Counted from the first letter of the stretch, positions 1 through 16,762 are shown. The stretch is DNA of 64,000 nucleotides from an uncultured Actinomycetes bacterium (GCA_963697125.1 CAVOMW010000012.1:6893-70892); one strand, 5' to 3'. Program-made: numbers and translations. Notes: a model not told the origin generated them from the sequence alone.

Positions 1-483
1 GGCTGAGGAGCTCGAGGCGCTGCCGATGCCCCAGCGCCTGCTCCACGCGTGTTACGCCGCGGTGCTCGGCGACTGGCCGCCCCGGCTGATGTCGCTGCGC
101 GACGTCGCGGAGCTGGTGCTCGTCGAGCGGCCGAACCTGGTCGACGTGCTGCTGATGGCGCGCGCCTGGCAGTGCGAAGCCGTGGTGGCGCGCGCGCGTG
201 ACGACCGCTTGGGACGGCTCGCGCTGGTCGACCGCCCGCCGATCGTCGAGTGGGCGGACCGCTACGTGCCGTCGCGACGCGATCGGGTGCTCCTCGCCGC
301 GCACGAGGGGCCGGCCCGCGCGTTCACCCGGCACCTCGCGGCGCTCGCTCGTGTTGCCGAGCACGGGGGAGCGGGTCGCGTACCGATCGTGCCATCGCGT
401 TGCCGCAGACCGAGTATCTGAAGGCGAGAGGATTGACTCCGAGCGATCACGTCACCCGGGCCTGGCGCGCGGTGCGCGGGTGA
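1..483 (+). CDS. Nucleotidyltransferase family protein (NTP_transf_5-like), C-terminal part; 5' end outside window
   Basis: LLHACYAAVLGDWPPRLMSLRDVAEL resembles the C-terminal LLHxxxH...RLxWLxD region of this family; lies next to an HprK-like kinase and PqqD genes; frameshifted, stop at 481-483. Confidence 0.6.
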
Positions 484-489
484 GGGCCG

Positions 490-1339
490 ATGCAGTATCG
501 AGCGCTGAGCTACGACTTCGTGCTGGACGTGGAAGGACACGACGCGGTCGCGCACCATCTGGACGCACTGCTCGCGCCGATGCGCCACGTGGCGCCCGAT
601 CCCGTGCACTGGGTGATCCGTGAGAAGGATGACGACTCGAGCCGGCTGGGCGATCGTCGCCGACGACGACGTGATCGCCAGTGCCGGCGAGCGCGAGCCG
701 CCTGGTGTACGAGGTGGTGCACACGCTCAACGCCGTTGCGATCGAGCGATGGGACGGCGTCGTGTGCCATGCGGGTGGTGTGGCGCGCGACGGTGTCGGC
801 ATCGTGCTCCCCGCCGACATGGAGTCGGGGAAGTCGACGCTGACCGCGGGGTTGGTGCGCGCCGGCTTCGACTACCTCAGCGACGAGGGCATCGCATTCC
901 ACCCGGACACCAACCTGATCCAGCCCTACCCCAAGCCGCTCTCGCTCGACCCGGGCTCATGGTTCCTCTTCCCCGAGCTCGAACCCCGCGCCGATCTCGG
1001 CGACGACGACTACAAGCAGAACCAGTGGCAGGTGGCGCCCGACGCCATCCGCGAGGGTGCGGTCGCGGATCCGTGCCCCGCGGGCGTGCTCGTCTTCCCC
1101 CAATACGTCGAGGGTTCGACCACCGAGCTCGTGCCGATCGGGCGCGCCGAGGCGCTCATCGAGCTGGCGAAGAACACGTTCTCCTTCAACCAGCAGAGCC
1201 GCTTCGCGCTCGAGCAGCTCGCCGGGATCGTGCGCGTCGTCCCCAGCTACCGCCTCACCGTGGGCTCGCTCGCCGCCGCCGTGGCGACGATCGAGCAACT
1301 GGTGAGCTCGATGTCGAGGACGCGCGAGCCGATGCCTGA
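490..1339 (+). CDS. HprK-related P-loop kinase
   Basis: CHAGGVARDGVGIVLPADMESGKSTLTAGLVRAGFDYLSDE shows the HA...GKST...SDE signature, plus PYPKPLSL; frameshifts near 640-690. Confidence 0.8.
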
Positions 1340-1611
1340 CCAGATCGACGAACACGTCGCGCCGGCGCGCGGTAGCGAGGTGTTCACCGTGGAGCTCGAC
1401 GGCGAGGCAGTGTTGCTCGACGAGGCCGCCGATCGGCTTCACCTCCTCAACCACACCGGCCACCCTGCTCTGGCTGCTCTTCGACGGCTCCACGTCGCTC
1501 GGGGAGCTCGCCGACGAGCTCGCCATCGAGCTCGACCTCGACCGCGCGCAGATGCTCGACGACCTCGTGGCGATCACCGCGCACCTGGCCGACGAAGGAC
1601 TGCTGGCGTGA
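1332..1611 (+). CDS. PqqD-family / RiPP recognition element (RRE) protein 1
   Basis: VELDGEAVLLDEAADRLHLLNHT..LLWLLFDGSTSLGELADELA...LADEGLL is a classic PqqD pattern; one frameshift near 1460. Confidence 0.85.
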
Positions 1612-1886
1612 CCGACCGTCGCCGCGGTACCACCGCGTCGCCGCACGTGCTGTGGCGCTGCACGCTCGACACGGTGGTGCTGCTCCCGGTCTCGTCCGAC
1701 GACGAGCCGTTCGTGCTCAGCGGCAGCGGTCCCGAGCTCTGGGAGCTGCTCGCCGATCCCCGGACGCTCGACGACCTCGTCGCCGTGCTTGCGGCGGTCC
1801 ACGCGGTCGACCCGGCTACCGTGCGCGCGGACGTGGAGCCTATGCTCGAGCAGTTGGCGGCGCGGCGCGCGATCGAACTGCTCTGA
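1608..1886 (+). CDS. PqqD-family / RRE protein 2
   Basis: DTVVLLP...LSGSGPELWELLADPRTLDDLVAVLA...VRADVEPMLEQLAARRAI; GTGA start/stop overlap with RRE 1. Confidence 0.8.
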   Translation: MTDRRRGTTASPHVLWRCTLDTVVLLPVSSDDEPFVLSGSGPELWELLADPRTLDDLVAVLAAVHAVDPATVRADVEPMLEQLAARRAIELL

Positions 1887-1971
1887 CGAGCGGCCCGGAA
1901 GGTGCGCAACGCTCGGCACCCCCTGTCGATGTGGGCCAGGGCGACAGTTCGTGTTCAGGAGGTGTGGGTAG

Positions 1972-2508
1972 GTGGAGCGAGACGAATCAGCGGCGGCACG
2001 ACGTGGTGTCGACCGTCGCACCTTGATCAAGGGCGCGGCCGCGGCCGGGGTCGGGGTGTGGACCGCGCCGGTCATCCTCGACAGCCTCAGCTCGCCGGCC
2101 GCCGCCGGAAGCGTGACGGGGTGCCAGAGGATCCACCTCGAGGTGAACCCCTGCCCAATCCTCGGGAACTGCAATGCGCTCCCGACGTCGTCGAGCGCCT
2201 GGGCCACCAGCTGCGACAGCACGTTCCCGTCGCTCAGCACGGTGTGCGGCACAACCCTGGCCAACCTGCCGACGACGGTCGACACCCTCGCCAACCTGGG
2301 CATCACGCGCACCAGCTGCGACCTGTTGGACACGACGCTCACGTTGTCGAAGACGACCTGCAGCTGGGTTGCGGGCGTTGCGCACAGCACCGTCACTGGT
2401 TGCCATGCATCGAACGCCATCAACAACGCCACGGCCGGCAGCCGGACCATCTCGTTCCCGGTCGGCTTGCTGGTCGACGACTACTACCTGGTGATCACCT
2501 GCACCTGA
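1972..2508 (+). CDS. Cys/Ser/Thr-rich exported protein with Tat-like leader (candidate substrate of the RRE module)
   Basis: Intact 178-aa ORF after an AGGAGG-like RBS; DRRTLIK twin-arginine motif, WTAPVIL, SPAAA|GS cleavage-like site, 9 Cys in the mature part. Confidence 0.75.
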   Translation: MERDESAAARRGVDRRTLIKGAAAAGVGVWTAPVILDSLSSPAAAGSVTGCQRIHLEVNPCPILGNCNALPTSSSAWATSCDSTFPSLSTVCGTTLANLPTTVDTLANLGITRTSCDLLDTTLTLSKTTCSWVAGVAHSTVTGCHASNAINNATAGSRTISFPVGLLVDDYYLVITCT

Positions 2509-2512
2509 CGCA

Positions 2513-3085
2513 CTACGACTCCTCGGGCCAGAGGAGCTCGACCATCTCGTCGACGAGCTCGCTCACCTCGCGGGCCATGGTCTCGTGATCGGCGAAGCGG
2601 CTGCCGGTGGGGTCCTCGACGTCGTCGTCGCGTGATGACCCGAGGAGATCGACCGGTCGTCGCCCGGCGCCCACCAGCGCGAGCCGATCGAGCGGCGATG
2701 CATCGAGAGGCGCGGGGCCGAGGTCGGCGCCGCGGCGTACGAGCTCCTTCAAGGTGAACGCGCGTGAGAACGCGGTGGGGTCGAGGACGACCACCTCGCG
2801 GAGCTGCGCGCGCTCCATGGTCAGCACGAGGTCGGCAGCCTGCACGGCGTCGGCGACGGCACGCCGGCTGGCGTGTCCCGAGAGGTCGAGACCCAACCGT
2901 GCCGCGGCCACGACGGTCGGTTCGGTGGCCGCGACGCCTTCCATGGCCCGTACCCCCGCCGACTCCACGGACGTGGCGATCCGGCGTCGAGCCAATCGGT
3001 CGGCGAGGATCGCCGCAGCCAGCGGCGACCGGCACTGGTTGGCGCTGCACACGACGAGGACCCGGGTGATGTCGCCGTCGCTCAC
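2513..3085 (-). CDS. Low-molecular-weight protein-tyrosine phosphatase (Wzb-like)
   Basis: VLVVCSANQCRSP P-loop, ADLVLTME and DVEDP acid loop. Confidence 0.85.
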   Translation of the reverse strand: MSDGDITRVLVVCSANQCRSPLAAAILADRLARRRIATSVESAGVRAMEGVAATEPTVVAAARLGLDLSGHASRRAVADAVQAADLVLTMERAQLREVVVLDPTAFSRAFTLKELVRRGADLGPAPLDASPLDRLALVGAGRRPVDLLGSSRDDDVEDPTGSRFADHETMAREVSELVDEMVELLWPEES

Positions 3086-6058
3086 GTACCGGCCTCGAGC
3101 CGGTCCCAGAGGTCCCAGGTGCCGACATCGCGGACGAGGTGCACACGGAACCGCGTGGTCTTGGCCAGGTCGATCGACGCGGTCGCCCGGCGGGCGAACG
3201 GTCGCTCCATGCCCGGGGCCTTGTCGATCTTCCACCCGTTGGGGACGTCGACGGAGACGTGCAACCGGTCGGGGTTGATGGTGGGTTGCTGGCGCACGAC
3301 GAGGTCGTACCAGCCGTCGTGCAGCTTGACGTTGCCGCCGAGCTTGGCCGTCATCACCTTGGTCTGCTTCGAGAACACGTTCTCGATGAGGGAGTAGACG
3401 TTGCGGCCGCGTTCGCGTCCGGGCCCCACCTGCACGGGCTTGCCGTCCCAGGTCGCCTGACGGAACGGCGAGCGGCGAGTACAGCGGAGATGAACGAGCG
3501 GTTCTGGCCGGCCGTGAACCGTGGGTCGAACGGGCCGATCACGATCTGGGGCAGGCCGGCGTCGGGCGCAGTGTTGTCGAGGTCCACCGCCACGTCGGCC
3601 TGGGCGTCTGCCTCGGTGAGGTCGTCTTCCGGGTGGAGCATGACCCGGTAGTCGACGTCGCGCTTCAGGTAGTAGTCGATCTTGTTGGCGCCGACGTTCG
3701 ACGTGGTCAGCGCGAACGAGTCGGAGCGCACCGGCGGCATCGCCTGGGCGACGTCGAGCTGCTCGGCGAGGCGCTGCTCGTCGGGCCGCGTGAAGGCGAG
3801 GGTGAGGTGCCCAGCGTGTGCCGCGGCGCCGAGCACCTTGGCGATCTCGGCCGGGCTGCCCAGCGTGCCCGACGTCGCCTTGTCGACGGCCGCCTGCGCG
3901 ATGTTCCCGAGCAAGTCGACGCGGCTCGGGCGTGTCCTCGGGGTAGACCGCGTACTCGTCGCGCAGTGTCGACGTCGACGACGTTGTCGGCGTCGATCGG
4001 GGTGGCCCAGCCGTCGACGTTCACCGGGCCCGTGAGCGCCAGCAGCGCGGCGAGACCGGCAGGATCGACCGCCAGCGACGCCGTCGACGTTCGTCAACCC
4101 GGCGGGCGCGCCGCCTTGCGCGGCGAGTCCGGTGAGCGCCTGCGCCACGCTCGGGAAGTCGGGCGAGAGGTTCACGTTCTGCAGCGTGGTCTGGGGCGAG
4201 TACTGCTCGTAGCGACGCAGGTAGTCGAGCGGCGCGGCGACGGTGGGGTTGGGCAGGTCGCGCAACGCGTCGTTCCACACGTTGAGACGAGTGAGGTCGC
4301 CCACGTGGAGCTTCCCGTTCTCGGCGGTGATGAGGCCGTAGCTCGCCGATGAACCCGCCGGTGGCGCGGCGACTCGGCGTTGTTCTGCACGACGAGCAGG
4401 TAGGTGCGGTTCCCGTCGCCACCGAAGATCGCAGGCGCCAGCGTGGCGGCGGCGGCGGCGTGGCGGGCCTCACGCTCGGCCTGCGCGAGCTGTCCGTGCA
4501 CCTTGTCGATGGCGTCGCGACCGGCGGCGCCAGGTAGGGGTCGTCGGCGAGGTGTCGATGCCGATGCGAGCGCGCTCGAGAGCGCGGCGGAGCCCTGCTC
4601 GAGCGCCGGCGTGACCTTGGCCACCTCCTCGAGCGGGCAGGCGACCGTCGACCACCTCGAGCGCGTCGGGATCGACCGACGGTGGTGATCGACTCGCCCG
4701 AGCGGGCGAGATCGGTGCCGACCTCGGCGAGCGTGCGGGCGGCGCGCAGGTTGGACGCGACGCCGGGCACCGCGAGACCGGGGGTGAGCACGGCCGACTC
4801 GAGCCGGTCGCTTGGCCCGACCGAACGTGCGGGCGGCTTCGTCGAACGAGGCGCGGGCCGAGGTCGAGTCGCCGTCGCGGGCGGCGGCGAGGCCGCGGCT
4901 GGCGGCGTCCTTCCCGTCGAGCATCAGGTTGGCGGCGTCGTTCGCCACCAACGCGGTCGGGAGGATGGCGGCGACGAGCCCCACCACCACCACGGCGACG
5001 ACGACCCAGGCGCGGCGGCTCAACCCCGGTGCGGGGTCGCGCTCGAGCGTGCCCGGCCCGCCTCGAGCCGACGACGAGCAACACGACGCCGGCGCGCGGC
5101 GACGCCGAGCCACTCGGGCACGACCGCGCGGCCGGTGAAGACCGCGATCGCGGCCAGGAGCACCTGCCCGACAACGACGAGGGCCGCGACCTCGCCGGTG
5201 CTCCAGCCGAGGCGACCCAAGCGGTGCACCAGGTGGTCGGCTCGGTGCTCGAGCAGCCGACGGCGGTGGCGCAGCCGCGACAGGGTGACGAACGCGACGT
5301 CGAGGAGCAGGAAGCCGAGCACGATCGTGGGGGTGAGGATGCTCCGCCACGGACCCGCGACCGGCTGCACCGCGAGCGCGCCGACCGCCAGCGTCCACCC
5401 GACGACCAGGCGTCCGGCGCGGCCGACGAACAGCGACGCCGGTCGTACGTTGAACGCCAGGAAGGCCACGCACGCGGCGGCGAAGCCGATGAGCACGGTG
5501 GCGAGGCCGTCCTGGTGCGCGAACGCCGCGAGCGCGAAGAGGCCGGCCGACGCGGCGATGCCGATCCCGGGTGCGAGCCCGTCGAGCGTTGCCGATGCCG
5601 TCGGCGGCTCCGGATGACCGCGACGATCAGCACGAAGGCGAGGATGCACGTCGAGGGCGTCGACACCGGTCGGCCCGAACCGGGCGCCGGCGGCGACCGC
5701 GACGCCCGCGGCGACGAGGGTGGCGATCAGCGTGAGCCGGTTGCCCGTCGTCGACTGGTCTGCCACCAGGCCCACCCCGGCGAGCACCACCGCGCCGAAC
5801 GCGATCGTGACGCTGAGCGCGCCGAACGAGGGCGCGAAGACGAGCCCGACGAGCGGCCCGACCGCGAGGAGCGCGCCCGCGCGCCGGCGGAGCTGCGGCG
5901 CTGTCGGCTGGCCCTGCGCGGCCGGCTCGCCCAGCCCCGCGCGACGGGCCTCGCGACGGAGCGCCGCGCACACCGCGAGCACGACGAGCGTCGCGACCGA
6001 GAAGGCGAGCAGCCAGCGATTGGCCGTCGTCGACGGCCAACACGACCGCTGCGAGCAT
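3082..6058 (-). CDS. Probable fusion of a degenerate WecA/MraY-like (glycosyl transferase family 4) membrane domain (~5060-6058) with a DUF4012 domain (~3082-5050)
   Basis: DGLA...FLAFNVRPASLFVG...DHLVHRL (MraY-like); RTYLLVVQNNAE.RATGGFIG, NVNLSPDFP, NVGANKIDYYL (DUF4012); many frameshifts. Confidence 0.7.
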
Positions 6059-6101
6059 CCGGACGATGCTACGCGTGCGCCCGCCGCCCGAAAGGCGCGG
6101 G

Positions 6102-8040
6102 TCAGGCCCGTTCGGTCAGCGCGGTCGAGGCCGCTCGGCGCCGGCTCGCCGTCGAGCCAGTCGGGCGCGTGCGCGGGGCGGCGACCTCGAGCAGGGCCGC
6201 GCCGTGCGCCGACGTGGTCGTCGGCGACCGCGAGCGCCTCGAGGCGGGCGAGCGCGTCGGCGAGCACGGTCGGCGTCGAGGTGCACGGGCTCGATCGTGA
6301 GGATCGGCCGGCCCGGGACCGGCGCGCTGCTCCGCGGGCCCGATCACGGCCTCGCTCAGCTTCTCGCCCGGGCGCAGCCCGGTGATCTCGATCTCGATGT
6401 CGACGTGGGGGCGAAGCCCGCAGAGCCGGATCATGCGCTCGGCGAGCTCGTAGATGTTGACCTGCTCGCCCATCTCGAGCGCGAGGACGTGGTGGTCGCC
6501 GTCGGTGCGCCGCGGCCGCAGCAGCACGAGCCGCACCGCTTCGTCGGTGCTCATGAAGTAGCGGGTCATGCGCGGGTCGGTGACGGTGACCGGGCCGCCG
6601 GCGGCGATCTGGCGCTGGAACGTGGGGATCACGCTGCCGCGGCTGCCGAGCACGTTGCCGAAGCGCACCGAGCAGTAGCCGTCGTCGCGTCGGCGCGCGT
6701 CGAGCACGATCTGCTCCGCGACCCACTTCGACGCGCCCATCACGCTCGTGGGCGCGGCCGCCTTGTCGGTGGAGATGCACACGAGGTGCGTGACGTCGTA
6801 GCGTCGCGCACGCGTCGACGACGTTGAGCGGTGCCGAGCACGTTGGTGCGGATCGCCTCGCACGGGTGCTCCTCGAGGATCGGCACGTGCTTGTGCGCGG
6901 CGGCGTGGAACACGACCTCGGGGCGCACCGGCGCGAAGACGGCGTCGACGACCGACGCGTCGCGGATGTCGCCCAGCGCGATCTCGGGCTCGGCACGCCC
7001 GGCAGCGTCTGCAGCGCGTCGTGCAGGTGGGTCTCGTCGTGGTCGAGGAGCACGAGCGCGCCGGCTCGAACTCGGCGACCTGCCGGGCGATCTCGGAGCC
7101 GATCCAACCGCCGCCGCCGGTGACGAGCACCCGCCGCCCGTGCAGCAGCTCGCGGACCGGGCTCGAGGTCGATGGTCGACCTGCTCGCGCCCGAGGAGGT
7201 CCTCGATGTCGAGGTCGCGCACGTCGCGCAGGCGGGGCATGCCGTGGACCCACGACGACGACGTCGCGGAGCACCCGCACCGGGATCGCTGGCCGGCTCG
7301 GCCGGTCGGCGACGTGCTGCACCACGCTCGCGCGGCGCGGACGGGCATCGCGAGCAGGATCTGGTGGACGTCGTGCTCGTCGATGATCTCGGCGAGGTCG
7401 TCGAGCGTGCCGGCGATGCGGCACCCCGTGGATGGAGCGGCCCCGCAGCGCCGCGGTCGTCGTCGACGACGACCACCGGCACGAGGCCGAGGCTCGGGTG
7501 ATGCTGCATCTCGCGGAGCGCGGCGGCGCCGTTGGTGCCCGCGCCGACGACGGCGATGCGAACGCCGGCGCCGGGGTACGTCGGAGCGCCGGAACGCGAA
7601 CAGGCGCGACTGGAAGCGCACCAGGCCGAAGAGGAACGTGGCCAGGATCGGTCCGGCGATCGAGCACGCGTGAGCGGCACGCGCTCGCTCGCCCCAGAGA
7701 ACGCGACGATCAGCACGGCGCCGGTGCAGGCGCCGGCCGAGAGCAGGCGGACGGCCTCGTCGATGCTGGCGTGGCGCCAGGTGCGGCCGTAGCAGCCGCA
7801 GGCCCACATGGCGACCACGCTCACGACGCACGCCACCGGCAGGAAGAGCTGGAAGCTGGTCCCAGTAGTCGGGGGGACGTAGAAGTCGAAGCGGAGGTCG
7901 AAGAGGACGAGGTACGTGAACGCAGCGAGGACGAGGTCGATGATGACGAGGGGGTAGTCGCCGCGGACTCTGGCTGCGCCGAGCGAGCCGAGGCGTGGAC
8001 CGGAGCGACGCTTCGTGCCGGGGTCGTGCGCGTTCGCCAC
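6102..8040 (-). CDS. Polysaccharide biosynthesis nucleoside-diphosphate-sugar epimerase/dehydratase (CapD/PglF-like)
   Basis: VLVTGGGGWIGSE, FHAAAHKHVP, ISTDKA..PTSVMGASK, VRFGNVLGSRGSVIP, RMTRYFM, GLRPGEKL; N-terminal TM segments. Confidence 0.9.
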
Positions 8041-8246
8041 CTGTTGCCCACCCGCTTCCGGTCTGCCTCCCGGCCGATCGGTCGCCTCCCCGCTAGGCCT
8101 GGAGGCGCGTAACGCACCTGCCAGGCGTCACGAACATGGCTCCCGATCAGGCCGTTACTACGGAGAGTGATCATCGCACTCGCTGGTGCTCGTTGTCGAG
8201 GGCGAGCTTCGTCGACGCCACGGTACTTGACTTGAGTCACAGCTGA

Positions 8247-9444
8247 TCAGGTCGAGCGGATGCCCTTGCGAGCGGCGACCTCGCGGTAGGTCTCGAGCAC
8301 GGTCGTCGACCACCCGGCGCTCGTCGAAGTGCGTGCGACGCGCTCGCTGGCGGCATGCCGCCCCGAGCGCCTGGCGCTGCTCGGCGGTGATCGCCCGAGT
8401 GCGCGCAACGCCGCGGGCGAGTGCCGCGGGTCCCGGACCGGGACGAGCGAGGCCGGTGACGCCCGGCTCGACGACCTCGCGGCAGCCGCGGACGTCGGTG
8501 CCACGACGCGGGAGCCCCATCGCCGCCGCCTCCATCGCGGCCGCGGGGAAAGCCCTCGCGGTGGGAGGCGAGCACGAACACGTCCATGGCGGCGTAGAGC
8601 GCGTCGACGTCGTCGCGGTGCCCGAGGAACACGCACCCCGCGGCGCCGGGCCGCGTCGAGCACGGCGCGGGCAGGGCAGTCGGGCTTGTCGGGGTCGGTC
8701 GCCGCCGACGACGACGAGGCGCGTAGCGGTCGGCGGGCAGCCCGGCGATCGCCTCGAACAGCTCGGGGTAGCCCTTCTCCGCGACCAGCCGCCCGACCGA
8801 CCCGACCACGATCGTCGTCGTCGGTCGACCCGAACTCGCGCGCGGATCGCGCGCCGTTCGTCGGCGCGAGACGCGCGGCGGTCGAAGCGGGCGAGGTCGA
8901 CGCCGTTGCCGAGCAGCCGGGCGTGACGGGTGAGGTGGAGCCGCTGCATCAGCGCGAGGTCTTCGGGGTTCTGGAACAGCTCCGCGTCGGAGCACCGCGC
9001 CGCGATCGCCTTCGAGCGCGTAGACGACGGCGCGCTTGCGCGACGGGTCGTCTTCGGTGCGCGTAGAGGCCGTGCACCGTGTTCACGACGATCGGGACGC
9101 GCGCGAGCCGACCGACGACGCGCCCGTACACGCCCGGGCTTGGGGTTGTGGGTGTGGAGCACGTCGATGCGCTCGCGCCGCAGGATCCGCCAGAGCTCGC
9201 GCGCGGCGCGGAGGTCGGCCGCGGGTCCATCGAGCGCGTCGACGAGCGCGAGCGCGATGTGGCGGATGCCCTCGGCTTCGAGCTCGGCGACCCACGGTCC
9301 CGGGCGCGCTGATGCCGATCGCGCGTGCCGCCGCGCGTCGCGCACGGCGCGCAGCTGCGCGAGCACGAGGAACCGCAGGCTCATGTCGACGGTCGTGAGG
9401 TGCGCGACGGTGAACCGGTCGCCTCGCGTGCGCCCGGTTGCCAC
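8247..9444 (-). CDS. Glycosyltransferase family 4
   Basis: VAHLTTVDMSL, HTHNPKPG, VNTVHG, GRLVAEKGY, DVFVLASHREGF..AAMEAAAMG. Confidence 0.85.
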
Positions 9445-9462
9445 GAGTGCGATGCTACGGCG

Positions 9463-10330
9463 ATGGGCGAGCGTGCTCCGCGACGACGGCGTTCTGGGCT
9501 CGCGTTCGTGGTGCGACCGTCGGGGTCGGCGTCGAGCGTCGTGCTCGCGGTCGGCGCGGTGGATGGCGATCGCGGCGCCGCATCGTCGCCGTCGTCGGCG
9601 TCGTTGCTCGCCCTCGCGAGCCGCAGCCCGGTCTGAGCATCGCGTGGTCGCGCTCGGCGTGGTGCTGGTCGCGGTGGCTCGGCCTGGTCGAGGAACACGC
9701 GGGCGGGCACGGTACCCAGGTCGTGGTCGCTCGTTGCCGGGGCGCTGCTCGTGCGCGGCGCCGCTCGCCGAGCGGCTCGGCCGCTGTGGATGCGGGTGGT
9801 CGGTGTTCGTCGCGGTCGTCGTCGGCGCGCCCGTTGGCGTCCGTCGTCGACCGCGCGGGCGCCGCGGTGGATGCCTGTGTTGTTCCTGCGTCAGCACGAT
9901 CGGGATCTACGTGTGCGTGCCCGACACCGAGGTGCCCAAGGTGCTGCTCGGTGCGGTCGGCGCCGGTGGCGTTGCTCGCGCTCGACCGACGCGCGCGGTC
10001 GAGCGCGTCGACCGGGCGTTCGTGGCCGCTCGTGGTCGCCGCCGCGGTGGTCGGGGGCGTCGGACGCCCCGGCGCCGTCGTCGGCGGGATCGCGTGCCTC
10101 GGGGTGGTGCTGCTCGCTCCCGCTCGTGCGGTGGCGAGCCCGCGTCGCCCGCCGAAGTGGTCGTGCTCGTCGACGCACGGTGCTGCGTCGTGCTCTACGT
10201 GGCGCGCGTCGGCCGGGTTCCGCGACTCGGCGTGGACGCGCGCTTCTTGTGCGTGCCCGCGTTCGTGATCGCGTGGCACGCGTGCTGCTTCGTGACGCCC
10301 GGCTCGCGATGCGGCGATCGCGGTCAGTGA
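9463..10330 (+). CDS. Hypothetical integral membrane protein
   Basis: Hydrophobic segments across shifting frames (IGIYVCVPDTEVPKVLLGAV; AVVGGIACLGVVLL); heavily frameshifted. Confidence 0.45.
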
Positions 10331-11465
10331 CGCGTCGTGCGCTGAGGCGCTGGTACGTCGCTTCGATGCGCGCGACCGCGGCGCGCGATTCGAGAATCGG
10401 TCGCCGGTCGGCCGCGCGCCGTCGACGAGACGCGCGTGCACCGCGGGGTCGAGCGCGCGCTGGATCGCGTCGGCGAGGCGCACTCGGCGAGCCGGGGGTC
10501 ACGAGGATCCCGTTCTCGCCGTCGCTCGACGACCTCGGGGAGGCCGCCGACCGCGGGCGCGACCACGGGGACGCCGAGCGTCAGCGCCTCCATGACCGTG
10601 ACCGGCAGGCCCTCGTGGTGCGACGCGAGCACGAAGAGGTCGGCGGCCGCGATGAGCCGGGTCGTGTCGTCGCGGTAGCCGAGCAGGCGGAACCGGTCGC
10701 CGAGCCCGCTCGCGCGGTGCAGGCGCGGCGATCTCGTCCTCGAACTGGCCCTGGCCCGCGGTGACGAAGCGACCGGGCACGCCCGCGTCGACGACCATGT
10801 CGCGCGGCCTCGATGAGCCCCGGGTAGTTCTTGCCCGGCGCGGAGGTTGGCGACGGTCACCGCGAGCGACTCGCCGGGCTCGACGCCGAGCTCGCGCCGG
10901 ATCGCGTCGCGCTCGGCGAGGTCGGCGCGCACCGCGTCGACGTCGACGCCGTGCACGAGCGACCTCGACCCGGTCGCGGTCGCGACGGGAGACCGAGTCG
11001 CGCACGTCGTCGGACACCGCGAACACCGCGTCGTTCAGTCCGAACGTGACCTGGTTCGACGCACGCGGGTCTCGGTGCGGTACGACGGCCAGCGGTTGTG
11101 CTCGGTGTAGACGAACGCCGGACGCTGTGCGCGCGGCATCGCGCGCACCACGACGCCGCGCGACCGACGCGACCAGCGGTGAGTGCGCGTGGACCACGTC
11201 GTAGCGTTCGCGGCGCAGCAGCGACGCGCAGGCGCGTCACCCAGCGCGGGTCGAGCTCGGAGCGCACGCCGAGGCAGTGGGTGCGCACGCCGAGCGCCTC
11301 GAGCTCGGGCACGAGGTGCTGCTTCCAGTCGAGGACGTAGGCGACCTCGTACGTGAACGCGGTCGCGGTCGCCGGCGCGGGCGTGCTCGACCAGCAGCCG
11401 TTCCGCGCCGCCCGGCCCGAGCCCCTTGATGAGCCAGAGGACGCGCACCGGTGCCGGTCGGTCAC
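10324..11465 (-). CDS. Glycosyltransferase family 4
   Basis: VRVLWLIKGLGPGGAERLLV, VHAHSP, VYTEHN, DLFVLASHHEGLPVTVMEAL. Confidence 0.85.
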
Positions 11466-11750
11466 AAGTCGCTCGTGCATCCCTGCGGACGGCGTGTCGA
11501 GCGCGTTCACCGCGTCGAAGGTGGGCACGCCCGACGCGAGGATCGCGTCGACCGGCCACGCCGGGTTGCGCACGAGCACGACCACGAGGTCGTAGGGATC
11601 GAGCGCGCCGGGATCGATCGGCACCGCCTTGTGCTCGCGCCCCGCGAGCTCGAGCGACGCGACCAGCGGATCGGCGTCGTCGTCCATCATCGCCTCGAGC
11701 AGCACGCGGGCGGTCTCGTAGAGCACTCCGGCGTCACCCCGCCGCAATCT
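11462..11750 (-). pseudogene. C-terminal (UDP-binding) fragment of a UDP-glucose/GDP-mannose dehydrogenase family protein
   Basis: DPLVASLEL...YDLVVVLV...TFDAVNAL resembles the C-terminal domain; the N-terminal domains are absent and the fragment abuts a poly-C tract. Confidence 0.5.
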
Positions 11751-11769
11751 CACTGTTCCCCTGCGCAAA

Positions 11770-11788
11770 CCCCCCCCCCCCCCCCCCC
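11770..11788. repeat. C19 homopolymer tract
   Basis: 19 consecutive C residues, unique in the window. Confidence 0.95.
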
Positions 11789-11865
11789 GATCCGCTCGAT
11801 CAGGCCGGGAGCAACGGTCACGACGGGAAACGGTAGTGGACAGTGGCGCATATCCTTGTCTGTCG

Positions 11866-13589
11866 ATGGAGATCGTCACGCAGCCAGTCAGCCCCGACGA
11901 CATCGACCTCTCGTTCGTCGCGCGACTCGTGCCCGACCTCGAGGTGATGACGGTCGGCGACGAGCAGATCGTGGTCAGCGACGACGCCGGCGTGATGGCC
12001 CTCAACCGACCGCGGGCGCTCATCTTCGGGTTCCTCGACGGGGAAGCGACCCTGGCCGAGCTCACCGACGACTTCACCGAGGTGCTCGGCGTGGACCGTG
12101 ACGTCGTCGAGCGCGACGTGCTCCAGTTCGCTCGCCACCTCGGCGCCAACGGCCTGCTGGAGGGCGTGGCGTGGCCGCCCCCGGAGATGCCCGAAGGGTG
12201 GGACGAGGGTGAGCCGTGGGAGCCGCCGGCACCGCTCGAGGTCGGCGACGAGATCGACGACTTCACCCTCACCGATCTCGACGGCGAGCAGCGTTCGCTG
12301 TCCGACTTCCGTGGCCGCCGCACGCTCCTCGTGAACTGGAGCCCGGGCTGCGGGTTCTGCGTGACGATCGCCAGCGAGCTCGCGGCGCTCGACCCCGTCC
12401 TGACCGAACAGGACGTGTCGTTGGTGTTCGTCACCTTGGGCGACGCCGAGTCGAACCGTGCGCTCAACGAGCAGCACGGTCTGGGCGCGCCGATGCTGCT
12501 CCGCGACGGCACCGAGACCGACCCCTTCAACGGGACCGGGACGCCTGCAGCTCTGCTGCTCGACGCCGAAGGGACCCTGGCCGAGGCGATGTCGGTGGGC
12601 GCCAACCAGGTGCCGGTGCCTGGCGCGGGATCTGGCCGGACTCGACCCCGCCACTCCCTACGGTGTCGCGGCGGTCGACGAGTCGGCACCCGACGACGAG
12701 CTCGACGGCGACGAGGTGCGCGGGACCTATCTCCCGGCGCCGGGGCGATGTGCGGCCCCGGCGGAGGAGGCGGCGCGTCCGAACAGCACGCAGTGGGAGG
12801 GCACGCGCGTCTACGCGCTCGGCGAGTACCACGTCGGCGTGCAGCATGACGCCGCCGAGACCGCCGCTGTCCTCGACCGGCTCTTCCCCGACGCCCGGGT
12901 CAACGACCGGCGCTGTGCCCGACAACTACTCGGTCGCGTTCGGGCGGACTCCCACCACGAAGAGCGCCGGTTCGTCGCGGTCGCTGAAGTTGCTCGTGCA
13001 CGGCGGCCGGCAACTCGTGCGGTCGCGATCAGGGGCCGGGTGCTCGCCACGCTGCTCCAGTACCTGTCGGCCGATCTCGAGCCCGCGGATCCCAGCCTCA
13101 CCGAGGTCTACGCCGAGCGCGCTACCATGCGCGATGGCGAAGCGTTGCTCCTCCCGGGTGGGCTCTCCGAGCACGTGAAGGTGCTGCAGCCGCGGTTGGC
13201 GAAGCGTGGATTGACGCTGGTGGACACGCCACGGGTGCTGCTCGATCTCGACGCTCGTGAGCTGGTGGTGCCCGAGCCGGTCGTCGCGTTCGATCATGCC
13301 GTGATCGAGGAGCTCGACCGCGACGTGAAGCTCGGCAACGAGCTGCCCTGGGTACGGCCCGGCCGGTACCCGCTGCGTGCGTGGTTCCTCGCCCGCAGTC
13401 CGGACGACGTGGGCCCGCTGAGCCCCGCGGTGGCAGTGACGAGCACGCTCTCGATGCTCTCCACCGACGACGACGTGCGGTACGCGTGTCGAGCGCCTGA
13501 CCGACCTGTTCTCGGCAGTCGACGCGTACGGAACCTGGTACGAGAGCGCCGACGAGCTCGCCACCCAGGTTGACGCGACCCGGTCCTGA
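11866..13589 (+). CDS. Three-domain protein: PqqD/RRE + thioredoxin-fold (TlpA/AhpC-TSA, CGFC) + degenerate HprK-like domain
   Basis: ALN...IFGFLDGEATLAELTDDF...DVLQFARHLGANGLL (RRE); DFTLTDLDGEQRSLSDFRGRRTLLVNWSPGCGFC...GTPAALLLDAEG (TlpA); RDGEALLLPG...RLAKRGL (kinase-like, no GKST); C-terminal part frameshifted. Confidence 0.75.
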
Positions 13590-13608
13590 TTCGCGCGGGT
13601 CCTGACGC

Positions 13609-14724
13609 TCAACCGGTCGTTGCGATGATGCCCATCACGAGCAGCTGACGTCGCACCACGGCGCGGTTCGAGTGCGCGGCGCGCGGCGTCGAGATCGGCG
13701 GGATCGAGCGCGGCGGGCGTGCGGCGCACTGCGTCGGCCAGCGACGCGGCATCGCCGGCGCGGTAGCGCGGGCCGAGGTGGAACCGCACGACCACGTCGG
13801 CCGCAGCTGCGTCGTCGCAGCACACGACGGGCTTCCCCGCGCCGATCGCGTCCATCAGGGTGCCCGACTCGTTGCGGTAGTCGGGCGTGAAGCTGAGCAC
13901 GACGAGGTCGGCCGCGGCGAAGAGGCGGTCGCGTGTCGTGTCGTCGACGACCCCGGGAAACGTGACCAGTCTCGGGCCGGGCTCGAGCCCGTCGGCCACC
14001 GGGCCGCCGACGACGAGCGTCCAGTCGTCGAGGGTGGCGAAGGCCGCGAGCACGACGTCGCGCCGCTTGAGCGTCGGCTCCCCGAACAACAGGGCGAGCT
14101 TGCCGTTCGGCGGGAGGGCCAGTTGTCCGCGCGTGGTCGGGAACCGCGTCGACGGCGCGGACGCCGGCAACCGGCGCGACCACGGGATCCAGGGACGCCG
14201 CCGCCTCGACCCACGTCGCCCGCAGCCGCTCGTGCGCGACCACGATGCGCACCGCGCCGCCGGCGCGTCGCCGCTGCCGTTCCCGCTGTCGAACGAACGC
14301 GTCGACGAGACGTGATCTCGGAAACTCGGTCGACGACCGGAATTGGTTCACCAACCACCGCGCCCGGAGCGGAGCGAGTGCGGCGAGGAGCGCCGGCATC
14401 TCGTCCCACGCGAGGACGACGACGATGTCGGGGGCCGGCACCATCCGTCGCGCGCACGCTCGGATCTCGATCGCTTGGACGCTCGTGAGCAACCAGGGGT
14501 CGCGGAAGCGACGCCGGAGCTGCCACGCGCGGGAGCGCCACCGCTTGACCGAGAACGGCGGCGCGGGACGTTGCGCGTCGCGTGACCAACCGAGGCTCGT
14601 GAGCAGTTCGACGCGGTAGCCGAGCTGCGCGTACGCGGCGGCGAGCTCCGCGCACCGGTTCGGGAAGTGCCCGTTCGGAGAGTGGCGCGAGCGACTCGAC
14701 GATCAGGACGCTGCGCGCGGACCT
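13609..14724 (-). CDS. Glycosyltransferase (GT-B fold, GT4-like)
   Basis: RDRLFAAADLVVLSF...SGTLMDAIGAGKPVV; N-terminal VLIVE...GHF. Confidence 0.7.
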
Positions 14725-14760: not shown

Positions 14761-15368
14761 TCAGCGCAGGGTGAGGCGCTTCAGGTCGAAGTACTCGCTC
14801 ACCTCGAGCGCCGACTCGAACTCGCTGCATGAGCGCCTGCGCGTCGGCGGGCATCTCGCGTTGTTCGGCGGAGCGGGCGGCGGACTCCGAGGTGAAGTAG
14901 ACGATGTCGGTGTAGCCGTCGTCGTCGTCGTGGATGGCGACGACCTCGCCGATCACGTCGGGCCGCACTGCACTCGAGGATCTTCTCCGCGTCGGCGGCG
15001 TGCGCGAACATCTCGTTCGCCTTGGCGAGGTCCTTCACCTGGCCGCGCATCACCTGGACGAAGGCGGCGTCGTCCTTGCCGCCGCCGAAGAGCGTCTCGA
15101 TGCGCGAGCAGTCGTGGAACGTCACGTCGTCGACGACCTTCTCCATCTCGGCGAACCACGCGCCCTGTTCCGGACGGGCGCTGTTCTTCGCCGCCGCTTC
15201 CGGCGACTCGAAGCGGGCGGCCACGAAGAACCGGCCGTCGTCGGTCGTCCCCTCGGTGACGCCGAGGTACCCGACGGCTCCGGGCCGGAGCTCCTCGTTC
15301 CACCGTTCACCGAGGCGTTCGAACGCGTCGAGATCGGTCACTGTGCCGCTGATCACCTGGACGAACAT
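14761..15368 (-). CDS. Conserved hypothetical protein, internally duplicated (ABM-like alpha/beta-barrel repeat)
   Basis: MFVQVISG...RFESPEAA and FVQVMRG...YFTSESAAR repeats; AAGGAG RBS. Confidence 0.65.
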
Positions 15369-15448
15369 GGCGCACTCCTTTCGCGCTGGCCCATCTGCTG
15401 CATGGCCGGAACCACGGTAGACCTGACCAGGGACGATGTCGACGGGCG

Positions 15449-16762
15449 TCACTCCTGCTGGTGCTCCCCACCGTCGATCGCGCGGCGGCTCCGGTGTTCC
15501 CCGGTTGGGAGCTCCGCTGGTACTGGGTCACGGACGCCCGGCCCATCACCAGCATGGCGGCCACCGCGGCGAGCAACCCGGGGACGATGTAGCCCGGACG
15601 ACCCGTGGTCTCGGCCACGAACATCACCGCCGCCAGCGGCACGCGGTACCCCGCACCGAGGAACGCGGCGACGCCGATGACGACGAACAGGGTGAGGTTG
15701 TGGCCGCCGACGACGCCGAACGCGACCCGGCCGAGCAGCGCGCCGGCGACGACGAGCGGGATGAACAGCCCACCGACGCCGCTGCCGGCGACGGTTGCGA
15801 CGTTGGTGAGGCAGCGCACGACCAGCACGACGAGCACGAGCCAGACCGCACGCGTGGGATTCAGGGCCCAGTCGATCGTGTGGTACCCGATCCCGATCGC
15901 GAGCGGCTTGTCGGTGAGCAACCACGTGATCGCGAACAGTGCCGCGATGGTGAGACCGCTCCCGACGATGCGGATCCACGGACTCACGTTCTCGATGAGC
16001 CACTTGGCCCGCCGCACGAGCCACGCGTACCCGCGGGCGCAGACACCGGCGGCGATCCCGAGCGCGATCGCGCCGGCGAGATCGGCGAAGGACAGCGGTG
16101 GGGCGCCGTGGGCCGCGAACACCGGCGTGATGCCGTTCACGGCGACGAACGCGAGGTAGCTCGACGCCGATGCGACCAGCGCAGGCAGCAGCATCCGCCG
16201 AGCGAGGTCTTCCTGGTAGGGCACCTCGAGCGCGAACAGGGCGCCGGTCGCGGGGGCCTTGAACACCGCGGCGACGCCGGCCGCCGCGCCGGCGACCAGG
16301 AGCACCCGTCGGCTGCTCCCTGCGGTGAAGCGCGGGAACCGGCGCTGCAGGAACGTGCCCAACCACGAGCCCAGGTAGATCGATCCGCCCTCGAGGCCCA
16401 TCGCGCCACCGAACCCGGGCGTGGCGATCGCCGCCAGCATGCGGCCCGGCATCTCGCGCAGCTTGTACTGCTTGTCGTCGTCGTGGAAGGCCTTCAGGTA
16501 GAGGTCGGTCATGCCCGCGTCGCGCGTGCCGCCGACGCGTGTGAGCAGGAGCCACGACAACGTCAGCCCGACGAGCGGCATCCACGCCATCACCCAGGGC
16601 GACAACTCGAACACCCGGTCGAGCAGCCCGTCGACGACGATGCGATCGAACCCGGCGACGGCGAATCCGGTGACCGCGCCGGTGATCGCGGCCAGCACGC
16701 ACCACTTCGTGCGAGCGACGAGCGAAGTCGCGGAAGCGACGGGTGGTCTCGCCCGGGCTCAC
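15449..16762 (-). CDS. Chloride channel (ClC family) protein
   Basis: GGAMGLEG, AGAAAGVAAVFKAPATGALFALE, GVGGLFIP, RVPLAAVMFVAETTG. Confidence 0.9.
   Translation of the reverse strand: MSPGETTRRFRDFARRSHEVVRAGRDHRRGHRIRRRRVRSHRRRRAARPGVRVVALGDGVDAARRADVVVAPAHTRRRHARRGHDRPLPEGLPRRRQAVQAARDAGPHAGGDRHARVRWRDGPRGRIDLPGLVVGHVPAAPVPALHRREQPTGAPGRRRGGRRRRGVQGPRDRRPVRARGALPGRPRSADAAACAGRIGVELPRVRRRERHHAGVRGPRRPTAVLRRSRRRDRARDRRRCLRPRVRVARAAGQVAHRERESVDPHRRERSHHRGTVRDHVVAHRQAARDRDRVPHDRLGPESHACGLARARRAGRALPHQRRNRRRQRRRWAVHPARRRRRAARPGRVRRRRRPQPHPVRRHRRRRVPRCGVPRAAGGGDVRGRDHGSSGLHRPRVARRGGRHAGDGPGVRDPVPAELPTGEHRSRRAIDGGEHQQE

Follow-up and report, generated by a model that had tools for sequence, protein, structure and literature searches.

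The first 13,589 positions of a 64,000-nucleotide stretch of DNA (the window; coordinates G000:C12:6893-70892), taken from the metagenome-assembled genome, of ~72% GC, of an uncultured soil bacterium of the Acidimicrobiia, carry a compact set of plus-strand genes: an NTP_transf_5-type nucleotidyltransferase, an HprK-related P-loop kinase, two RiPP recognition elements (RREs; RiPP, a peptide made on the ribosome and modified after translation) of the PqqD family and a Cys/Thr-rich protein with a twin-arginine-type leader. An initial annotation, made from the sequence alone, had described these genes as one operon and proposed that they form an undescribed system for RRE-directed modification of the exported protein; all five genes are found in this arrangement by profile and orthologue matches. 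The new result is the linkage of the leader family to HprK-related kinases across an Acidimicrobiia order.

The cassette, the leader-bearing protein and the third RRE

The source genome (G000) comprises 15 contigs and is 66.5% complete. Frame changes run through the nucleotidyltransferase, the kinase, RRE1, the third RRE and the large minus-strand genes, at least seven genes of positions 1-13589 being affected; together with the completeness value, these changes fit single-base indels in the assembly. Genes in 1-14347 were called with orthologues from cleaner assemblies as guides (tblastn). Only the 3' part of the nucleotidyltransferase lies in the window (1-483, +): its start is ~495 bases upstream, and the frame changes near 367. 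In tblastn it matches the orthologue of a related genome, G015, with 52% over 243 amino acids (aa) and then, in another frame, 55% over 40 aa. This orthologue (L022:2495-3562) scores 85 bits against PF14907 (cut-off 31.2) and the counterpart in G063 109.7 bits; the 139-aa 3' fragment in the window, searched by itself, matched neither PF14907 nor any other Pfam model.

The kinase (490-1334, +) changes frame between 636 and 693 and has no stop before RRE1. Its frame 675-1886 reaches 107.2 bits against TIGR04352, HprK-related kinase A, and covers profile positions 89-280, a score below the 200-bit cut-off; the intact G015 orthologue, at 115.1 bits, is also under 200. Identity to the G024 kinase is 65% over 207 aa, with the N-terminal piece in another frame. 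A Walker A motif, 'ESGKST', is present in the frame 675-1886, and GK[ST]T is kept in 4/5 aligned kinases. RRE1 (1335-1611, +) gives 30.4 bits to PF05402 on 1306-1611 (gathering threshold 23.4 bits) and changes frame at ~1460, its two halves matching the RRE1 of G024 in two frames. RRE2 (1611-1886, +) is intact, scores 48.4 bits over residues 335-400 of the frame 675-1886 and was aligned with eight orthologues; intact orthologues of the RREs score 40.3, 49.9 and 46.7 bits. The nearest models of the RREs are lasso and other RiPP chaperones, every score being below cut-off. The order of the four cassette genes is conserved in 9/12 related loci fetched.

Several variations on the cassette were seen. 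Further PqqD and HprK-like pairs occur in the source genome at G000:C4:98161-102610, G000:C1:140989-144998 and G000:C6:683402-684624; two of the three have an NTP_transf_5-like open reading frame (ORF) nearby, as judged by eye, and the PqqD domain on C6 is fused to a glycosyltransferase-like ORF. Outside the window's family, a ~600-aa gene without Pfam match stands between nucleotidyltransferase and kinase (L036:14163-15965, -), and in the loci L029, L037 and L041 these two genes are 1.7-2 kb apart. Two tyrosine-kinase co-polymerase genes (Wzz plus P-loop) are found in several loci (L022:678-2495 and 5100-6940; L015); in G015, G009 and G002 the second of them directly follows RRE2, the position of the leader gene in the window.

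The gene directly after RRE2 (1972-2508, +) opens with a GTG start after AGGAGG and encodes a 178-aa protein with a Cys/Thr-rich beta domain. Its leader runs RRTLIK...GVWTAPVILDSLSSPAAA; the RR motif, the uncharged stretch and the Ala-x-Ala site are all present in the window protein, which reads 'DRRTLIKGAAAAGVGVWTAPVILDSLSSPAAA'. The mature part after SPAAA has 133 residues, among them 9 Cys and 23 Thr, with Cys at both its start and its end. A metagenome protein collection holds 69 homologues, all of them hypothetical or unnamed, four at 59-96% identity. Their leader consensus is RRxLIK...AAW[TA]APVI...SPAAA, and the W-x-x-P motif is found in 65/69. Invariant in a 16-sequence alignment are R15, R16, I19, A23, G26, W30-T-A-P33, I35, S41-P-A-A-A45, C51, C130 and C177. 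The bracketing cysteines recur as well: a Cys follows within 12 residues in 63 of the 68 homologues with a recognisable PAAA-type motif, and 57/69 have a Cys within the last five residues.

In the AlphaFold2 model, residues 1-47 are disordered and the rest, mostly at pLDDT 80-89, is mostly beta, with a first strand at 50-57 and a last one at 168-177. For the mature 133-aa domain, Foldseek against the PDB returned nothing at E<=0.001 (best 0.077), and a wide VIA-align search gave generic beta-sandwich entries only (best Z 5.1, rmsd 4.1, 99 aligned); the missing structural relatives are no evidence for a new fold. In the ESM Atlas the best feature score was 0.87 (lead level 0.9), and an entry at 0.84, a methylamine dehydrogenase light-chain cluster, is a lead only.

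The leader resembles a twin-arginine signal, and export by the Tat pathway is predicted from its motifs. PF10518 (TAT_signal) gave 19.8-21.1 bits (cut-off 22.7) in the leader proteins of 3/4 relatives and no match with the window's own; TIGR01409 gave 16.7 bits, exactly its cut-off, in one of two leader proteins tested. TatC is encoded in the genome (99.6 bits, G000:C11:83040-83680). The leader is rare in the source genome, with 2 matches to the strict pattern against 108 to a generic Tat-like pattern in six frames. One and the same leader precedes quite different mature domains, in proteins of 150-560 aa, and since it is conserved in front of unrelated domains it behaves like a sorting or recognition signal.

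Leader proteins of other families (L036:4940-6628 of G063, L041 of G227, L029 of G030 and L037 of G129) carry a post-leader 'GTERPCxxFY' and a C-terminus like 'V-L-I-Y-C-x-P', and those of G063 and G227 contain very long Ser/Thr/Pro-rich stretches. As a PMT_2-type glycosyltransferase is encoded near the G063 leader protein, the sequences suggest that the leader proteins of these families may be O-glycosylated surface proteins.

The third RRE protein (11866-13573, +, in three frames) combines a PqqD domain, a thioredoxin-like domain with the motif CGFC and a C-terminal domain of ~300 aa. Its fusion to a thioredoxin within the same glycan locus, as first annotated, is upheld by PF05402 (31.5 bits) and PF00578 (AhpC-TSA, 51.4 bits), and identity to the intact 567-aa protein of G011 is 55-68%. 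At E<=0.001, 162 relatives of the G011 form were found; most carry the annotation peroxiredoxin or thiol-disulfide isomerase, and for two of them NCBI uses the name 'PqqD family peptide modification chaperone'. Three of the 120 matches listed (P0169, P0172 and P0174) are 951-aa fusions that add NTP_transf_5 to PqqD and AhpC-TSA and thus tie the third RRE protein to the cassette by a Rosetta-stone link between nucleotidyltransferase and RRE. In the AlphaFold2 model (pLDDT 83), residues 123-255 adopt a ResA-like fold (Z 18.3, rmsd 1.9, 131 residues aligned to 2f9s_A), and the CxxC cysteines (C159, C162) are invariant in 24 aligned sequences; the thioredoxin domain filled the results of structure searches with the whole protein. 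The label 'kinase-like' for the C-terminal domain comes down to a profile-profile match with HprK-like kinases. In this hhalign match, which spans 181 columns at 48% probability and E 1.8e-4, Walker A is not kept, 'DFVKQL' standing at the position of the kinases' 'ESGKTT', and the domain would at best be a degenerate kinase-like domain. The G063 equivalent lacks the thioredoxin part. A conserved 246-aa protein without Pfam match adjoins the third RRE gene in the window (14764-15389, -) and also in G011, G009, G002 and G005.

Linkage of the leader family to HprK-related kinases

Among the 32 genomes of the window's family, the leader profile is found in 13, the third RRE in 11 and the cassette kinase, at E<1e-30, in 12; leader and cassette kinase occur together in ten, that is, in 10/13 of the leader-positive genomes. 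The three with a leader and no cassette kinase are G004 (59% complete), G041 (75% complete) and G008, where a paralogous kinase stands beside leader genes. The position of the leader gene varies from genome to genome: it directly follows RRE2 in the window, and lies between kinase and RRE1 in G024, while in G018 a pair of leader genes immediately precedes a second, paralogous kinase of the same locus. In G011, G002, G009 and, weakly, G005 the third RRE gene has a leader gene 2-5 kb upstream of it. On G000:C11 and G008:C6, the neighbours of the leader genes are further paralogous kinases and a weakly PqqD-like ORF, all in an island between the genes for Mpa, the proteasome ATPase, and a ferredoxin. 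This island is variable (G000:C11:99147-110043, L017; G008:C6, L016; G024:C3, L014); the G024 version has three leader genes but lacks a kinase, and in G000 TatC is encoded ~16 kb away on the same contig.

Linkage of the leader family to the kinase had been set beforehand as a test of the initial proposal, and it is found across the order. The leader profile has 88 matches in 62/264 genomes (scoring covered no more than 12 candidates in any one genome), and TIGR04352 at E<=1e-6 is matched in 137/264, with 0/264 reaching the 200-bit cut-off (150 matches listed and 24 further; the tally includes G097, G241 and G075, which are flagged as unpublished). Among the matches listed, 48/88 leaders share a contig with a kinase, and all 48 pairs lie within 15 kb, 45 of them within 10 kb. 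Outside the window's family, again among the matches listed, every same-contig pair (33/33, in 33/49 genomes) is within 10 kb. At least one such pair occurs in nine families (f1, f2, f6, f7, f10, f12, f14, f18 and f20), in several gene orders.

A case in point is the complete 2.46-Mb genome G063, where one leader and one kinase match lie 8.1 kb apart. Its locus starts with a 563-aa leader protein with long Ser/Thr/Pro-rich stretches and the C-terminus '...VVLIYCKP'; then follow a UDP-sugar dehydrogenase, an HNH element, a methyltransferase and the PMT_2-type glycosyltransferase, next a PqqD-X protein, the kinase and a 601-aa ORF, and finally NTP_transf_5, PqqD and a tyrosine-kinase co-polymerase. 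The HNH element is a DUF222/HNH endonuclease gene (L036:8049-9302) between sugar dehydrogenase and methyltransferase. In G030 a similar leader protein is encoded 5 kb from the cassette.

Leader recognition and competing explanations

Modelling of the RREs with the leader, as the initial annotation had suggested, was carried out with RRE1, RRE2 and leader residues 1-62 of G024, each with an alignment. The complex scored 0.44, against 0.17 for the best of three controls. In calibration, the mark was reached by 58/80 solved complexes and 2/110 mismatched pairs; at scores up to 0.60 it was reached by 7/80 solved complexes and by both passing mismatches. At least 45% of contacts are common to the runs, and the pLDDT of the partner is at least 46. 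The model thus gives weak support to binding of the leader by the RREs.

PqqD domains are peptide binders. At a probability of about one half, the RREs read the leader, and the cassette, on the analogy of lasso tailoring, modifies whole proteins before their export by Tat. In the order of steps presumed for this reading, the RREs would first bind the leader in the cytoplasm, as RiPP chaperones do with leader peptides; the kinase could then phosphorylate a Ser or Thr of the RRE-bound protein, and the nucleotidyltransferase might extend this phosphate by a nucleotide or, as happens in lasso peptides that are phosphoglycosylated, by a sugar-phosphate. The bracket cysteines may be handled by the thioredoxin domain of the third RRE protein. 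Tat would finally export the finished protein, with the leader cut at the Ala-x-Ala site. The chemistry invoked here has a precedent: in lasso systems, an HPr-kinase homologue transfers phosphate to the C-terminal Ser of the leader-bearing precursor, and the nucleotidyltransferase adds hexoses to the phosphate (PMC8498205, PMC7533575). A bolder version may be put forward more tentatively: RiPP-type RREs would have been recruited to the twin-arginine signal, and full proteins of 150-560 aa would gain a phosphate and then undergo nucleotidylation or phosphoglycosylation, with the bracket cysteines, too, settled in the cytoplasm before export.

A number of observations weigh against this proposal. 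The kinase is more widespread than the leader family (137 versus 62 of 264 genomes), and G003 and G015, 86-89% complete, have kinase and third RRE without a leader match. Of the 40 leader matches that share no contig with a listed kinase match, 7 come from genomes for which no such match is listed, and the other 33 stand on contigs that lack one in the list. Nine leader genes in G011, G009, G002, G004 and G024 stand on contigs, some of Mb size, without TIGR04352 at E<=0.01; conversely, no leader-family gene was found beside the three additional PqqD and HprK-like pairs of the source genome. The order-wide pairs are not independent, coming from related genomes (many of family f12, for instance, share one arrangement), and most leader matches outside the window's family score only 20-32 bits. 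Ser or Thr is the C-terminal residue in 26/69 homologues, and it is a C-terminal Ser that lasso kinases use. The score of the complex model falls into the weak band. Finally, cassette and leader genes are alike parts of surface-glycan loci, so that their physical linkage could come from a common pathway instead of an enzyme-substrate relation. The unlinked leader copies would be explained by one cassette acting on several substrates in trans, and equally by there being no functional link.

It is quite possible, if not the favoured explanation, that cassette and leader genes share a locus and the cassette acts on something else. Its substrate might be a short peptide, an intermediate of glycan synthesis, lipid-linked or polymeric, or a different protein of the locus, such as the tyrosine-kinase co-polymerase. 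The leader proteins would then be ordinary Tat-exported surface proteins whose leader has been kept by recent paralogy. The wider distribution of the kinase, the two cassette-positive, leader-negative genomes and the unlinked leader paralogues all fit such a situation; so do the scores of the leader near the cut-offs of PF10518 and TIGR01409, as for an ordinary Tat signal, and the Ser/Thr/Pro-rich orthologues near a PMT_2-type glycosyltransferase, as for ordinary extracytoplasmic O-glycosylation. A cassette with another substrate is, however, harder to reconcile with the peptide-binding role of PqqD domains, as no other conserved ORF of at least 45 aa, the size screened, was found in the 1.5 kb after RRE2 in 9 loci. 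Moreover, the leader gene takes varied positions in or beside the cassette in different genera, conservation resides in the leader rather than in the mature domain, across unrelated mature domains, and the complex model passed its controls, if weakly.

The frame breaks raise the further question of whether the system has been pseudogenised in this organism. Contigs from four soil-metagenome DNA runs of one study (shares 0.06-0.13) covered parts of 1-3000; no RNA run with the sequence was listed. One of these, otherwise identical over 1405-1556, has one base fewer at 1460, the site of the frame change in RRE1; the break at 1460 is therefore an assembly error, a one-base insertion. A second short-read contig misses one base at 487 and a more distant one five bases at 1313, the junction of kinase and RRE1; the kinase break at 636-693 had no useful short-read coverage. 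In the leader gene, the parts covered (1895-2028, 2090-2240 and 2338-2485) show substitutions and zero indels. Intact orthologues of all cassette genes exist in the short-read assemblies G015, G024 and G011. From the 1460 site and these orthologues, we infer that the remaining breaks are assembly errors, too. Decay of the locus, to which frame changes in at least seven genes might point, is accordingly very improbable: breaks occur throughout this incomplete genome, where TatC is also split across three frames, the break at 1460 is missing from an otherwise identical contig, the orthologues are intact, and codon-position GC shows the coding frame switching within genes while the GC bias itself is kept across the breaks.

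At the junction of kinase and RRE1, the kinase frame of the window enters RRE1 without a stop (1240-1400), giving the appearance of a kinase-PqqD fusion; the five-base loss at 1313 in the related short-read contig would split the two, and in G015 kinase and RRE1 overlap in different frames.

The initial annotation had reported no lasso cyclase, radical SAM or YcaO gene in the window and had advised reading upstream for lasso genes; none of these was found on C12. The lasso B2 protease model NF033537 had 0 matches at E<=0.01 in G000; a control search matched 1/14 genomes. PF00733 (Asn-synthase) has four matches, three on C9, one on C8 and none on C12; radical SAM has 14, with 0 on C12, and YcaO has no match in the genome. 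Before the window begins, C12 has a further 6.9 kb, which contain a GT4-like ORF and fragments and no lasso genes. A lasso cluster is thus rejected for this locus; as the genome is incomplete, the absence of lasso genes is a statement about the locus, not about the whole organism. That the RREs, kinase and nucleotidyltransferase are the tailoring genes of a remnant or split lasso cluster, with precursor, B2 and cyclase elsewhere or lost, is the least probable explanation of all: the best NCBIfam match of the RREs is indeed the lasso PqqD chaperone NF033530 (42.7 bits, cut-off 70), the pairing of kinase and nucleotidyltransferase is known from lasso clusters (PMC8498205, PMC7533575), and 66.5% completeness leaves a genome-wide absence unproven, but neither B2 nor, on C12 or upstream, the remaining machinery was found, and in many genomes the cassette is stably part of exopolysaccharide loci, those read being free of lasso genes.

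The surrounding locus and relation to known systems

The cassette and its neighbours belong to one end of a locus for surface polysaccharide and glycoprotein that is conserved in an Acidimicrobiia order. The glycan genes listed in the initial annotation, all on the minus strand, were found again by profile and tblastn. A low-molecular-weight protein tyrosine phosphatase (LMW-PTP, 2513-3109; PF01451 67.2 bits, 52% identity to the G015 orthologue) is followed by a fusion of a WecA-like (Glycos_transf_4) domain with DUF4012 (3085-6030), which matches residues 27-991 of a 991-aa G015 orthologue by tblastn in three frames (orthologue PF13196 121.6 bits, PF00953 33.5 bits). Then come a CapD-like Polysacc_synt_2 protein (6330-8040; tblastn, three frames; orthologue PF02719 317 bits) and two GT4 glycosyltransferases, at 8308-9225 (the G006 orthologue, matched at 43% over 308 aa, scores 115 bits to PF00534) and 10385-11418 (the G009 orthologue, matched at 48% over 315 aa, scores 108 bits to PF00534). 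A third glycosyltransferase is represented by a fragment of a group 1 domain (13638-14347; PF13692 33.7 bits). A CLC-type chloride channel gene (15310-16698, -; PF00654 196 bits) bounds the glycan locus on that side.

Polysaccharide loci repeatedly contain HprK-related kinase, PqqD and NTP_transf_5 together, a triad that NCBIfam catalogues; the leader family supplies a concrete candidate substrate. If the cassette does act on the leader proteins, the orphan triad of exopolysaccharide loci would gain its first substrate, and a common orphan module would be explained. RiPP logic would then reach full-size exported proteins, with signal peptides doubling as tags for cytoplasmic tailoring, which would be relevant to the RiPP and protein-export fields alike; and a leader-guided maturation pathway would feed the surface glycan layer across an Acidimicrobiia order. 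If the linkage reflects a shared pathway only, the leader family would still be a new, lineage-wide component of Acidimicrobiia surface loci.

In the literature searched, which left most subscription journals outside, the combination of HPr kinase, PqqD and nucleotidyltransferase was found only in papers on lasso peptides, no paper named a substrate of the triad in polysaccharide loci, and nothing was found on RREs reading Tat signals. No description of the proposed modification of whole leader-bearing proteins was found there; the module itself has a precedent, as a relative of the NCBIfam HprK-related kinase A. The system would be RRE-dependent tailoring with an HprK-like kinase and a nucleotidyltransferase, a known type with new features.

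The closest parallel is the lasso tailoring set of paeninodin and pseudomycoidin, in which the same trio of HPr-kinase homologue, PsmN-type nucleotidyltransferase and B1 PqqD-like RRE stands side by side; lasso PqqD chaperones are also the nearest NCBIfam models of the RREs here. The chemistry there is a phosphate on a Ser of a leader-bearing precursor and then a hexose on that phosphate (PMC8498205). In contrast to lasso clusters, no B2 or cyclase was found here, there are three RREs, one of them thioredoxin-fused, and the context is an exopolysaccharide locus. Whereas lasso peptides have ~40 aa, the candidate substrates here have 150-560 aa and a Tat-type leader, with a terminal Ser or Thr in 26/69.

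Similar pairings and roles are known from more distant systems. SynChlorMet also combines an HprK-like protein (ScmC) with a PqqD-like one (ScmD); the matches are weak (25.7 bits to TIGR04249 for a paralogous kinase, 16.9 bits to TIGR04248 for RRE1), far under the cut-offs, and C12 has no radical-SAM gene. The Tat proofreading chaperones resemble the RREs in their proposed role, as cytoplasmic proteins that hold a twin-arginine substrate until it is mature, although here binding is predicted and the two have no sequence or fold relation. Chaperones of the TorD/DmsD/NapD type bind twin-arginine signals and serve cofactor insertion, not covalent tailoring. ResA/TlpA oxidoreductases share the fold and the invariant CxxC of the middle domain of the third RRE protein; they act outside the membrane, whereas the third RRE protein has no signal sequence, as judged by eye, and is fused to an RRE and a putative degenerate kinase-like domain.

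The best family match of the window kinase remains HprK-related kinase A. An 'HPr-rel-A system' has been described in exopolysaccharide contexts, and here, too, the kinase is paired with PqqD within a glycan locus. With 107-115 bits against a cut-off of 200, the kinases of the window and its relatives are relatives of this family rather than members; what sets the present system apart is that a candidate substrate family can be named.

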